A stretch of 64,000 bases of DNA, taken from an uncultured archaeon (GTDB lineage: Archaea > Micrarchaeota > Micrarchaeia > Micrarchaeales > CABMGC01). Shown piece after piece: positions 13,720 to 60,337 of this stretch (position 1 is its first letter; every line of letters starts with the position of its first letter). The notes under the pieces were generated by a model. The model was not told the DNA's origin. It ran no database searches and saw nothing but the letters and a program-made list of their open reading frames with translations. The stretch is taken from positions 136,949 through 200,948 of the forward strand of contig OY969902.1 in assembly GCA_963704435.1 (NCBI GenBank). Direction: 5' to 3'. The translations under genes were made by a program, and so were the position numbers.

Positions 13720-14238
13720 TTAAATACGTTGGCTTGTTTTTTCTCGGGCGGATGGCATCTTTCCGACGGCCGAGGCGAGCAGGCTCTCCTTCCCGACAAG
13801 GGACAGGAATGATCCGATGTTCATGACCTTCCCGTTCCGCATGTGTATGTCCAGCATCTCAAGCATGAGTCCGTCGGCCTGGTCGAGCCTAGAGAAGTAG
13901 ACCCCCCTCTCGTTCACGAATCCCTTCGAGTCGAGCATGCCGGCCACGAGGCACGCCGCGAGCTCGCGGCTCCTCTTCGGGAGCGAGGCCTTCCGCTCGA
14001 GGATCTCCCTTATCATCCGGGCTATCCTAGAATGGTAGAAATGGACGTGCTTGACCTCGCCGCTCTCCTCGATAAGTATCTTCTTAGGGTCCGCGCCGAG
14101 CGCGAGGGCGAACTTCACGAACCGCTCCACTAGCTCGTCATTGCGCGTCCTGACCCCGATGTAGCTCTTGTCGGGGACCCTGTAGTTGTCCATGACTCCT
14201 GCGAGGTAGCACAGCTCCCTTGTAGTCCTGAAGCGCAT
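13720..14238 (-). CDS. LAGLIDADG-like (double-motif) homing-endonuclease-like protein, free-standing
   Basis: Two dodecapeptide-like motifs about 85 aa apart: YLAGVMDNYRV (res 11-21) and CLVAGMLDSKGFV (res 96-108). The 172-aa size fits monomeric double-motif enzymes. Confidence 0.4.
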   Translation of the reverse strand: MRFRTTRELCYLAGVMDNYRVPDKSYIGVRTRNDELVERFVKFALALGADPKKILIEESGEVKHVHFYHSRIARMIREILERKASLPKRSRELAACLVAGMLDSKGFVNERGVYFSRLDQADGLMLEMLDIHMRNGKVMNIGSFLSLVGKESLLASAVGKMPSAREKTSQRI

Positions 14239-17793: not shown

Positions 17794-18483
17794 CTAGGAA
17801 TTGCTGCTAATTTTGACTCCCACTTTTGTTGCATGCTCATACGCTCCGACCAAAGGGCGAATATCTTCGAGAGATAATGGCGAGGGCCTTCTCATAGCAT
17901 CATGGAATGACACTTTAAGGTTAGGATCATTACTATCTCCGACTTTAGTGACATATCTGTAGTATGCGGATTTGAGAATTTCGTGAAGGCCATCCCCAAA
18001 TTGCGTTACCGAGTCGATAGCCGCTCCGCTTTCGTAAAAGGATGCAGTTGGAAGGAAGGATTTTACGCGGCCGACGGTCATTTGGTAATGGCTGTTATCG
18101 CGAAGCCTAACCAGCCAGGTGGTGTTTTCCACTGCAGCTATTGTGAGCATATCTGACGAATTATCCAGCTCTTCGGATTTTTTAGCTTTCATATAATCCG
18201 CGATAACTTCATCAAATTTTCTGACTTTGCTACTCAAGAGAGGAAGATTGTACACTGCTTGAGTAAGACCAGATTGCGGACGATTATCTTCGATGTGCAC
18301 TTGCGGCATAAAATAAAGCTTATACCCCTCACCTTGGGGAAGGGTTATGGCTAAAATAGCATTTCCTTCTGCGGGATACTTCCTCACAGCGAGCGTGCTA
18401 TCGATATTTAGAAACTTTGCTATATTGCAACAAATATCTGCTTCCCAGACGACTCGCCTGGTCTCCTCGTCACCCGCTCTCAA
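17794..18483 (-). CDS. hypothetical protein (229 aa), G+C-poor orphan
   Basis: Long ORF on the same strand, directly upstream of the multi-wHTH gene. No motif recognised. Very low local G+C (line 18181 = 20/60). Confidence 0.5.
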   Translation of the reverse strand: MRAGDEETRRVVWEADICCNIAKFLNIDSTLAVRKYPAEGNAILAITLPQGEGYKLYFMPQVHIEDNRPQSGLTQAVYNLPLLSSKVRKFDEVIADYMKAKKSEELDNSSDMLTIAAVENTTWLVRLRDNSHYQMTVGRVKSFLPTASFYESGAAIDSVTQFGDGLHEILKSAYYRYVTKVGDSNDPNLKVSFHDAMRRPSPLSLEDIRPLVGAYEHATKVGVKISSNS

Positions 18484-18561
18484 AACAATGCACCGAGTAT
18501 ACTATCTTTCTGATGGTATAAATGCATTGACTTTGTTTTTTGTCCAGAAGAAAAGCAGAAG

Positions 18562-18600
18562 CCTTGAGGGAAATGCAAACGAAATGCGCAGCTGCACGGG
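18562..18600 (-). other. 16S rRNA trailer arm of the leader/trailer processing helix
   Basis: Trailer RNA ...CCCGUGCAGCUGCGCAUUUCGUUUGCAUUUCCCUCAAG is complementary to leader CUUGAGGAAAUGCAAACGA...CGCAGUUGCAUCAGGG (20139..20184). That gives about 19 + 13 bp with an internal loop and bulges. Confidence 0.7.
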
Positions 18601-18649
18601 CTAAACCTAATCGAGAAACTTATTCTCTTGTGTCTCGTTAAAAATATAC

Positions 18650-20133
18650 GAGGTGATCTATCCGCAGGTTCCCCTACGGATACCTTGTTACGACTTGACC
18701 CCCCTCACAAAGCTTTAGTTCGAAGGCGCCGTAGGCGCCGCCTCACTAAAACCCTACTTGGGTGATCTGACGGGCGGTGTGTGCAAGGAGCGGGGACATA
18801 TTCACCGCTTGATAGTGACGAGCGATTACTAGGGATTCCAGTTTCATGAGGGCGAGTTTCAGCCCTCAATCCAAACTTTGACTGCTTTTGGGGGATTGGC
18901 TTCCCCTCTCGGGGTTGCGACCCATTGTAGCAGCCTCTGTATGCCGCGTGTAGCCCTAGAGATTCGGGGCATACTGACCTACCGTCGCCCCCTCCTTCCT
19001 CCTCCTTAAACGGAGGCGGTCCCGACAGAGTGCTCGGCCCGTCTCCGGACCGGTGGCAACTGTCAGCGGGGCTCTCGCTCGTTACAGGACTTAACCTGAC
19101 ACTTCACAGCACGAGCTGACGATGGCCATGCACCACCTCTCGGCTCGTAAGGTAAAGTCTTTAGCTTGACCTTCATCCTGCCGTCGCTCTAGGTAATGTT
19201 TCTGACGTTGTATTCAATTAAACCGCAGCATCCACCCCTTGTGGTGCTCCCCCGCCAATTGCTTTAAGTTTCAACCTTGCGGCCGTACTCCCCAGGCGGC
19301 AGACTTATCAGTTTCCCTACGGTACTGCGCTGACACGCGGTCAGTGCAACACCTGAGTCTGCATAATTTACTGCTAGGGCTACTCGGGTATCTAATCCGA
19401 TTCGTTCTCCTAGCCTTCGCCACTCACCGTCGGATGTGTTCTGACCAAGCGCCTTCGCCACCGGTGGTCCTTTTAGGATTACAGGATTTTACCCCTACCC
19501 CAAAAGTACCCTTGGTCTCTCCCACTCCCTAGCCGGAAGGTATCCTACGCACGGGTTGACGTTGAGCGCCAACATTTCACGCAGGACTGTTCCAGCAGGC
19601 TACTGGCCCTTTAAGCCCAATAATCGCGGACACCGCTTGTGCCGCCGGTATTACCGTGGCGGCTGCCACCGGTCTTACCCAGCACTTATTCGCCAAGCTG
19701 TTTGGACTTGGCAAAAGGCGAACCGAAGTTCGCCACTCAGACTTCCCCCATCACGCTTACGCGCATTGTGGAGTTTTCGCGCCTGCTGCACGCCGTAGCG
19801 CTAGGACCCTTGTCTCAGTGTCCTTCTCGGGGCTCTTGCTCCCACATCCCCTACGGGTCAAAGGCATGGTGGGCCGTTACCCCGCCATCAACCTGATCCG
19901 ACGCGGCCTCATCGCAGGGCAGAAGCGCTGCAATTCGCGCCCCTTTGAGCTATGGAACATTCCAGTATCCTTAGCCTATGGAGTATTAGCCTTAGTTTCC
20001 CAAGGTTATCCTCCTCCCTGCGGTAGATTAGCCACGCGTTACTGAGCCGTACGCCGCCGAACGAAGCCGTTCAGCTGACTTGCATGGCTGTCGAAATCTG
20101 ATAGTAGTGTCCTCCAGCAGCATCGACTGGTGT
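18650..20133 (-). rRNA. rrs: 16S (SSU) ribosomal RNA, complete, no large intron
   Basis: The reverse complement contains the SSU landmarks: 5' CCAGUCGAUGCUGCUGGAGG, 530 loop GUGGCAGCCGCCACGGUAAUAC, 915 region AGCAAUUGGCGGGGGAGCAC, and 3' AAGUCGUAACAAGGUAUCCGUAGGGGAACCUGCGGAUAGAUCACCUCG. Ends are +/- a few nt. Confidence 0.95.
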
Positions 20134-20138
20134 TGAAA

Positions 20139-20184
20139 CCCTGATGCAACTGCGAGTGTATAATATCGTTTGCATTTCCTCAAG
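20139..20184 (-). other. 16S rRNA leader arm of the processing helix
   Basis: See the trailer arm feature. The inverted repeat brackets the mature 16S, as expected for the archaeal pre-rRNA bulge-helix-bulge processing stem. Confidence 0.7.
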
Positions 20185-20265
20185 ACTAAATCCAATTGCG
20201 GCTGCAATTTTCACGAGCCGTCCGTATCAGATGATACAGTCGGTAGAACTAATTAGTAGAGATAC

Positions 20266-20276
20266 ATTTATAAATT
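20266..20276 (-). promoter_or_regulatory. TATA box candidate for the 16S rRNA gene
   Basis: ATTTATAAATT lies about 135 nt upstream of the mature 5' end, upstream of the leader arm. No other strong TATA lies between the preceding gene (ends 20331) and the leader. Confidence 0.45.
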
Positions 20277-20330: not shown

Positions 20331-20747
20331 TCAGGCTTTGATCTTGTGCAGATCCCCATAAATTATGACTGGTCTGACCGCTTCAATCTCGGTTTTGCAG
20401 TAAGGCATGTCCGGGATTGGATTCCACAGGAATATGGCCTGGTCCAATACGTGCGCGAAGCCTATCTCCATCAGGGTATTCCCGCCCACGTAGTTCTGAA
20501 TCCCGTCCTTGTCTAAGTTCATGACGAGCACAGCGTCGGCGCCCTGCATCTTCCTCCAGAATTCGCGGATGGCGTCCATATTATATTTCTGGTGCAGCTT
20601 TATTTTTTCTATCTCTTCCGAATTTTTACCTATCAGCGGCTTGTGCAAATCCGTTAAAAAGGCATCGTGGCCCATCGCTCTGAGTTCATCTTGGACTTCC
20701 ACCATTTTGTCGATAAATTGCATGGATCCGATTATCCCGATTCTCAT
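20331..20747 (-). CDS. nucleoside 2-deoxyribosyltransferase/DNPH1-like superfamily protein
   Basis: 138 aa. MRIGIIGSMQF... and GADAVLVMNLDKDG..YVGGNTLMEIGFAHVL resemble the Rossmann-like NDT/RCL pattern (aDvvvAevt.pS.GvgyElG.A). Confidence 0.4.
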   Translation of the reverse strand: MRIGIIGSMQFIDKMVEVQDELRAMGHDAFLTDLHKPLIGKNSEEIEKIKLHQKYNMDAIREFWRKMQGADAVLVMNLDKDGIQNYVGGNTLMEIGFAHVLDQAIFLWNPIPDMPYCKTEIEAVRPVIIYGDLHKIKA

Positions 20748-60265: not shown

Positions 60266-60337
60266 GCCCCGGTAGCTCAGTGGTAGAGCGACTGTCTCGT
60301 AAGCAGTAGGTCGAGGGTTCAATTCCCTTTCGGGGCT
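60266..60337 (+). tRNA. tRNA-Thr (anticodon CGU), no encoded CCA, no intron
   Basis: Hand-folded cloverleaf. Acceptor GCCCCGG/UCGGGGC. D arm GCUC-AGUGGUA-GAGC. Anticodon arm ACUGU-CUCGUAA-GCAGU. T arm GAGGG-UUCAAUU-CCCUU. Discriminator U. Confidence 0.9.

Follow-up and report, generated by a model that had tools for sequence, protein, structure and literature searches.

An unlinked 16S rRNA gene of a Micrarchaeota archaeon, probably matured without bulge-helix-bulge cleavage

The 16S locus

The window analysed here, a stretch of 64,000 nucleotides from an uncultured archaeon (positions 136,949-200,948 of contig OY969902.1), carries on its minus strand a 16S rRNA gene whose leader and trailer can pair to form a long stem. 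The genome consists of this single contig (C1), with 852,977 bp and 55.5% G+C. An earlier note on the window had described a solitary gene without an intron, altered primer sites, an unusual 3' terminus and a leader/trailer helix processed by bulge-helix-bulge (BHB) cleavage. The parts of the transcription unit are as follows, in window coordinates.

20266..20274, minus strand: TATA-like box TTTATAAAT, some 130 nt before the 16S 5' end, a presumed promoter, read by eye against the archaeal consensus
20166..20187, minus strand: leader strand of helix I, 22 bp, sitting where relatives have a BHB (cofolding and comparison)
20137..20154, minus strand: leader strands of helices II and III, 11 bp and 5 bp with a 2-nt bulge between them (cofolded pairs)
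18648..20133, minus strand: 16S rRNA gene, 1486 nt, full length and intron-free (Rfam RF01959)
18587..18602, minus strand: trailer strands of helices II and III (cofolded pairs)
18560..18582, minus strand: trailer strand of helix I, with one bulged C at 18570 (cofolded pairs)
18546..18560, minus strand: T-rich tract directly 3' of the helix, a presumed terminator, read by eye

The Rfam model SSU_rRNA_archaea (RF01959, gathering cut-off 50 bits) covers 18648-20133 (-) from model position 1 to 1478 with 1415 bits, an untruncated match with no large insertion, in agreement with the solitary, intron-free gene described earlier. A protein gene does follow soon after the 3' end, as had been said: the next open reading frame (ORF) on the 16S strand (17794-18483) starts 164 nt past the model end, and this gene has its own TTTATA at 18517-18522. 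A Pfam search of the flanking ORFs 17794-18483, 20331-20747 and 13720-14238 gave no match. The sole other RNA gene of the window is a tRNA-Thr(CGU) at 60266-60337, 40 kb from the 16S.

A search of the whole genome for RNA genes found one 16S (C1:155596-157081, -), one 23S (C1:439437-442287, +) and one 5S (C1:493695-493808, +). The 16S and 23S are separated by 282 kb and lie on opposite strands, with the 5S a further 51 kb from the 23S, so that 23S, 5S and spacer tRNA are all off the 16S transcription unit; the earlier claim that none of them is linked to the 16S is borne out at the scale of the genome. Relatives have the same layout; on single contigs their 16S and 23S are 81 kb, 87 kb and, going by a partial 16S match, 24 kb apart. 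Solitary 16S, 23S and 5S genes with no spacer tRNA are known from Thermoplasma acidophilum, DPANN and Asgard archaea (Tu and Zillig 1982; PMC8997704), and the present genome, in which all three genes are separated, does not differ essentially from these. Unlinked rRNA genes are prevalent in DPANN and in symbiotic, small-genome lineages, and a degeneration of processing stems has been mentioned for such organisms (PMC8997704). With unlinked rRNA genes and primer mismatches both already published for DPANN, the core finding is ordinary.

The closest 16S sequence is that of the uncultured Micrarchaeota isolate LFW-125_1 (93.1% identity). Identity to Ca. Micrarchaeum sp. A_DKE is 85.6% over the first 1049 nt, before the A_DKE intron, and identity to many Micrarchaeota metagenome-assembled genomes (MAGs) is 84-92%. 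The splicing endonuclease EndA of the genome (385 aa) aligns over 375 residues with the three-unit enzyme of ARMAN-2 (4fz2, E = 2.4e-146). By these matches the genome is assigned to the Micrarchaeota (ARMAN-type DPANN), the kind of lineage that the earlier note had proposed. Three loci labelled Armatimonadetes, 'bacterium' and Saccharimonadales (L042, L053 and L096) hold 16S sequences 84-86% identical to the present gene and are therefore taken to be mis-binned Micrarchaeota contigs in bacterial MAGs.

The core decoding nucleotides are canonical (G529, G530, A532 and the 1492/1493 stretch GUCGUAACAAGG). As the sole copy in the genome, with its decoding core kept, the gene has the sequence hallmarks of a functional 16S. 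A pseudogene, a chimeric assembly or sequencing errors at conserved sites might be suspected because the usually invariant positions 518 and 527 are altered and the 530 loop contains a C.A mismatch. We regard this as extremely improbable: the gene is full length with a score of 1415 bits, the changes in its helices are compensatory, the identical 530-loop variant occurs at 58 of 110 sites recovered in a sample of the phylum and in more than 100 public contigs, and the unlinked layout is shared with relatives; together these observations already contradict an artefact. The covariance-model alignment, which the earlier note had named as a check for misalignment, leaves the substitutions standing; they are not alignment errors.

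The leader-trailer helix

The stem between leader and trailer totals 38 bp: the 22 bp of helix I, 11 bp in helix II (20144-20154 with 18587-18597) and 5 bp in helix III (20137-20141 with 18598-18602). Leader and trailer cofold at -61.7 kcal/mol, against -29.8 +/- 3.4 for dinucleotide-shuffled trailers (z = -9.5), and the outer helix has compensatory variants in relatives (CCUCGAG/CUCGAGG and GCUUGAUCUC/GAGAUCAAGC). The pairing proposed by the earlier note is thus real, although the helix as predicted is not of the BHB type.

In a canonical BHB a central 4-bp helix is flanked by two 3-nt bulges, one per strand and each on the 3' side of that helix. Processing of archaeal pre-rRNA at such a motif, with a cut by EndA and circularisation by the ligase RtcB, was reportedly described by Tang et al. 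in 2002 and Juttner et al. in 2020. In relatives the BHB has a fixed place beside the conserved outer helix AGUCUUGAGG/CCUCAAGACU, where ...GAGGA RUGC [AAA] GAGG... in the leader faces ...CCUC GCAU [UAA] UCCUC... in the trailer, with the bulges in brackets. When at least 5 of 6 pairs are demanded in both flanking helices, a clear BHB is found at the homologous site in 12 of 25 relatives, two of them of the same genus. The present gene has GAGGAAAUGCAAACGA in its leader and UCGUUUGCAUUUCC(C)UC in its trailer. Here the AAA that bulges out in relatives is opposite UUU, and the trailer bulge is reduced and lies opposite two extra A, which together make an uninterrupted duplex with one bulged C. 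The bulges are likewise paired away in a congener (L012), by different bases (AAG/CUU). A strict search for a BHB between the present leader and trailer gave no match, and a relaxed search gave only weak, slipped G.U registers of the same duplex. BHB processing, as claimed before, is thus right for many relatives only.

The 23S gene lies within a bulge-free duplex of 20 bp (C1:439417-439456 with 442268-442307; locus L001), directly after which comes a T run. Across the order, 23S genes have only a short helix and then a T run, with no BHB. Both EndA and RtcB are encoded in the genome. RNase III was considered as the enzyme for bulge-free duplexes and dropped, as its domain PF14622 has no match in the genome.

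Archaeal pre-rRNA stems that contain a BHB are cut by EndA and circularised by RtcB, as described in a preprint (bioRxiv 10.64898/2026.03.23.713588). The present locus shares with them a long helix around the 16S and a genome that encodes both enzymes, and its relatives have a canonical BHB. It would then be conceivable that the helix is itself a BHB substrate, with EndA cutting both strands and RtcB circularising the pre-16S, as in Euryarchaeota and TACK archaea; the EndA is of the broad-specificity ARMAN-2 type, and the good BHB at the homologous site of 12 of 25 relatives, two of them congeners, points the same way. Against this, no 4-bp helix with two flanking 3-nt bulges can be formed between leader and trailer, the relaxed matches are slipped G.U registers weaker than the continuous 22-bp duplex, and the residues that bulge in relatives face complementary bases here (AAA/UUU). 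The locus differs from the known stems in exactly these paired bulges, and the 23S stem of the order differs in being short and bulge-free. We therefore consider cleavage at a BHB unlikely. The ARMAN-2 enzyme (epsilon2, PDB 4fz2), which the genome's EndA matches, is not encoded at the 16S locus and is relevant only as the would-be cutter of a BHB.

On our reading of the predicted pairing, rRNA maturation in this organism would not use BHB cleavage. The transcription unit would start from a TATA box of its own and run through a leader (about 115 nt), the 16S and a trailer (about 90 nt) to a T-rich stop, and the 38-bp stem would bring the ends of the precursor together. In the relatives that bear a BHB, the motif would be the substrate for three-unit EndA and for RtcB; here neither BHB cleavage nor circularisation would take part in maturation, and the precursor, held by its helix, would most likely be trimmed directly at the mature ends. 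The genome would keep EndA and RtcB for tRNA introns.

We consider it probable that the locus is a functional, single-copy, stand-alone 16S transcription unit of a Micrarchaeota (DPANN) archaeon, matured without BHB cleavage. Several points weigh against this. The completeness of the genome by marker genes is 92%. Promoter and terminator are presumed, both having been read by eye. The absence of a BHB is a matter of predicted pairing, and the pairs in place of the bulges, being rich in A/U, might come apart in vivo. ARMAN-type EndA, moreover, has been described as broad in its substrate range.

The genome offers a clean example of two large rRNAs that are unlinked and held in bulge-free duplexes despite the presence of a splicing endonuclease and ligase. 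The lineage thus offers a natural test of whether archaeal rRNA can mature without BHB cleavage and circularisation.

A hairpin shared by the 16S and 23S leaders

A further feature lies in the leader, upstream of the stem.

20190..20214, minus strand: conserved leader hairpin, stem AAUUGC/GCAAUU with 5' UGA and 3' GGA flanks, about 60 nt upstream of the 16S

Some 15 nt before the start of the 23S model, and immediately preceding the terminal duplex, is a near-copy (C1:439405-439422, +; stem AUUGC/GCAAU, flanks UGA and UGA). The strict pattern of the hairpin occurs at only two sites in the genome, in the 16S and 23S leaders, and not at the 5S gene; about two occurrences are expected by chance at this genome size, and it is the positions rather than the count that carry weight. 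Among the relatives examined the hairpin is present in 20 16S leaders and 14 23S leaders, and its conservation, with compensatory changes, extends across the order. In the 23S set, five of seven pairs have changed on both sides and 93.9% of cells are paired; none of 500 shuffles reached the observed pairing and slid registers did not come close either. A covariance model built from the 23S hairpins recovered only the 23S copy from this genome at E <= 1 and missed that of the 16S, so that the link between the two hairpins rests on shared motif and position. A search of the 16S leader against Rfam matched no family.

The stem is flanked by 5' UGA and 3' (G)GA in nearly all 34 copies, an arrangement that resembles the GA/GA core of a kink-turn. 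On inspection there is no second stem, and the 5' flanks have no conserved complement to the 3' flank; a kink-turn was therefore rejected. The hairpin is best described as a putative lineage-specific element of rRNA leaders, kept at both genes after they became unlinked.

The stretch ahead of the 5S gene (C1:493650-493694) contains a TATA-like box, ATTATAAAT, that ends about 20-25 nt before the first base of the gene. The 5S seems to be transcribed without a leader.

The 16S 3' end and translation starts

The 16S gene ends in ...GAUCACCUCG, and its tail contains the sequence expected to recognise Shine-Dalgarno (SD) motifs.

18648..18658, minus strand: 3' tail GAUCACCUCGU, with CACCU intact and the canonical CCUCC reading CCUCG

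In relatives the conservation of the tail ends after GAUCACCUC (CCUC), and the next base is A or G, with C in one. The 3' terminus that had been called unusual is exact in sequence, and it is unusual only when set against canonical CCUCC, since conservation in the order stops after CCUC.

SD use was assessed in 710 long ORFs by comparing the 20 nt before the first ATG with those before internal ATGs. GGTG precedes 15.1% of first-ATG starts and 6.0% of internal ATGs, its counts peak sharply at -9 to -11, and AGGTG is enriched 4.3-fold; GGAGG shows no enrichment before the first ATGs of the same ORFs. The AGGTG/GGTGA-type motifs noticed earlier upstream of many genes are thereby substantiated. 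Since GGTG and AGGTG are enriched and GGAGG is not, the anti-SD in use is CACCU, which is intact and pairs with AGGUG some 9-12 nt ahead of starts. The second C of CCUCC is missing, to no visible effect in these sequences.

In other archaea the 16S 3' end is made by the nuclease Nob1. Its PIN_6 domain (PF17146) was not found in the present genome, and none of 81 Micrarchaeia genomes of 90% completeness or more, the present one included, gave a match that passed the cut-off, whilst all four archaeal controls were positive. The verdict is that of PIN_6, as the zinc ribbon PF08772 matched just one control genome, below cut-off, and was uninformative. The pattern may reflect a different pathway to the 3' end or a protein too diverged for the model.

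Primer sites and lineage-wide changes

Mismatches to common primers were recomputed. The sites with the changes that had been noted before are these.

20113..20132, minus strand: Arch21F site, 6/20 mismatches
19651..19669, minus strand: 530-loop / 515F site GTGGCAGCCGCCACGGTAA, 2 mismatches to 515F and 515F-Y
19244..19263, minus strand: Arch915R site, 1 mismatch, AGCAATTGG against AGGAATTGG

All three of the earlier counts were reproduced. Arch519F, 806R and 1492R have one mismatch each, Arch958R has four, and Arch349F and UA1406R have none. At the 5' end, the covariance-model alignment shows one pair of helix 1 changed on both sides from G-C to A-U, the compensatory change that had been suspected. 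In E. coli numbering, the two changes at the 515F site fall at 518 (G, window 19666) and 527 (A, window 19657). The second of them turns the C522-G527 pair into C.A, which the alignment flags as non-standard.

These changes belong to the lineage. Among 25 relatives of the family or order the 515 site is identical in 21, has C518 and A527 in three and is canonical in one from another family. The Arch21F site is the same or similar in them, with 3-7 mismatches, and the 5' end, 915 site and 3' tail are also held in common. An exact-pattern scan for the 530-loop variant, with one genome per species, matched more than 100 contigs; nearly all bear a Micrarchaeota label, among them Ca. Micrarchaeum sp. 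A_DKE and ARM-1, and a few are labelled Aenigmatarchaeota, Nanopusillaceae or Huberarchaeum. In the phylum sample (201 genomes, 110 sites recovered for 518/527) the states are G518/A527 in 58, G518/G527 in 38, C518/G527 in seven, A518/G527 in four and C518/A527 in three. G518 is thus a feature of the class and A527 largely one of the order, and position 518 is unusually free within the class. The idea that A527 arose before G518 was dropped, as the sample showed G518/G527 to be common in other orders. Being fixed across the Micrarchaeota lineage, the primer-site changes are not errors.

The 16S genes of ARMAN, or Micrarchaeota, were reportedly found by Baker et al. in 2006 to escape standard primers. 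The present genome, a single contig, confirms for Micrarchaeota two mismatches to 515F/515F-Y and six to Arch21F; the group would therefore be under-counted in V4 amplicon work, as has been published for DPANN generally (PMC8407392). Under-detection by amplicon primers, inferred in the earlier note, is thus a fair inference and one already in print. As in the DPANN 16S genes of that report, which mismatch common primers, several broad-range archaeal and universal primers are affected throughout the lineage, including those for the 5' end and the 515 site (PMC8407392). That literature gives the mismatches only, and the meaning of G518/A527 for the decoding loop and the changes in uS12 are not discussed there.

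In the region that corresponds to window 18767-18786, many relatives alter the normally invariant 1400 region from CCGCCCGUCA to CCGCCUGCCA or CCGCCUACCA. The present genome has the canonical CCGCCCGUCA.

The 530 loop and uS12

The ribosomal protein uS12 was examined because C518 and uS12 Ser50 both contact A1492 at the decoding site (PMC5270523) and because the 521-522/527-528 pairs stack on the 530 pseudoknot (PMC9014874). The uS12 of the present genome, encoded outside the window (C1:51,696-52,124; L185:1405-1833, +), reads KQPHSGLIK and GCIPGLKY where solved archaeal ribosomes have KQPNS(G/A)xRK and GD(I/L)PG(I/V)RY. Relative to these, the Asn of PNSA is replaced by His, the Arg of xRK by Ile and the Asp of GDxPG by Cys.

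Comparison was extended to 77 genomes with a known 518/527 state from four DPANN groups, in counts that ignore kinship among relatives. The 17 genomes whose uS12 keeps Arg and Asp all have C518/G527, and the 43 with anything other than C/G at 518/527 all lack both residues. Altered proteins have His, Tyr, Ser or Ala in place of the Asn of PNSA (two genomes retain Asn), Ile, Leu, Val or Ala in place of the Arg of xRK, and Ser, Cys, Ala, Thr, His or Arg in place of the Asp of GDxPG. Of the 33 genomes with G518, 30 carry His at the Asn position, two Asn and one Tyr; all six genomes with C518 and A527, from Micrarchaeales and Aenigmatarchaeota, carry Ser there. These six lie on at least three strongly separated branches of a uS12 tree computed with the covarying positions masked; the two from Micrarchaeales do not group as sisters in the 16S tree either, in a part that is poorly resolved. 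In the phylum Nanoarchaeota, 93 of the 94 matching genomes (150 sampled) are canonical at 518/527 and uS12 is fully canonical in 13 of 15 checked. The single G518/A527 genome of that phylum (Nanopusillaceae) has a uS12 with PYSG, IK and GS.

It is possible, at a little under an even chance, that the decoding centre has been remodelled in several DPANN lineages by coupled change at 518/527 and at three near-universal uS12 residues lining the same pocket. The other account of these sequences is neutral drift of the 530 loop within lineages, its co-occurrence with altered uS12 reflecting shared ancestry only. The altered uS12 proteins of Micrarchaeia, most Aenigmatarchaeota and Huberarchaeum do form one clade of the uS12 tree and may have a single origin, and within one class position 518 varies between C, G and A, as if its constraint were relaxed. 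The 16 genomes that have an altered uS12 and yet retain C518/G527 fit drift as well and count against strict coupling. Harder to reconcile with drift are the complete absence of changed 518/527 from the 17 genomes with Arg and Asp, the loss of both residues in all 43 genomes with changed 518/527, the recurrence of Ser with C518 and A527 (6/6) on at least three well-supported branches in two phyla, and the fact that the lone Nanoarchaeota-phylum genome with G518/A527 is also the one with the triple change in uS12. Drift nonetheless has close to an even chance of being the explanation, and the covariation is a lead, not a result.

A one-to-one rule in which His in uS12 means G518 was rejected: His is found with C518 and A518 too, and Asn stands in two of the G518 genomes. 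Were coupled change to be correct, uS12 would have changed before the 530 loop and thereby permitted changes there that are otherwise forbidden. Should the covariation hold, it would reveal the protein residues by which nearly invariant decoding nucleotides are constrained.

The uS12 matches of two Aenigmatarchaeota loci, L246 (G442) and L253 (G383), contain one in-frame TGA each. This could be a sequencing error or a recoded stop.

A free-standing relative of 16S insertion genes

In 11 relatives the 16S carries a protein-encoding insertion of about 520 nt after GGUUAAGUCCGGU, which is absent from the present 16S. A free-standing gene of 172 aa lies 4.4 kb downstream of the 16S (window 13720-14238, -), and its product is homologous to the proteins encoded in those insertions (tblastn E = 4e-29, 34% identity). 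With the 16S itself free of the insertion, this gene therefore looks like one of the homing-endonuclease type that left, or outlived, its intron.

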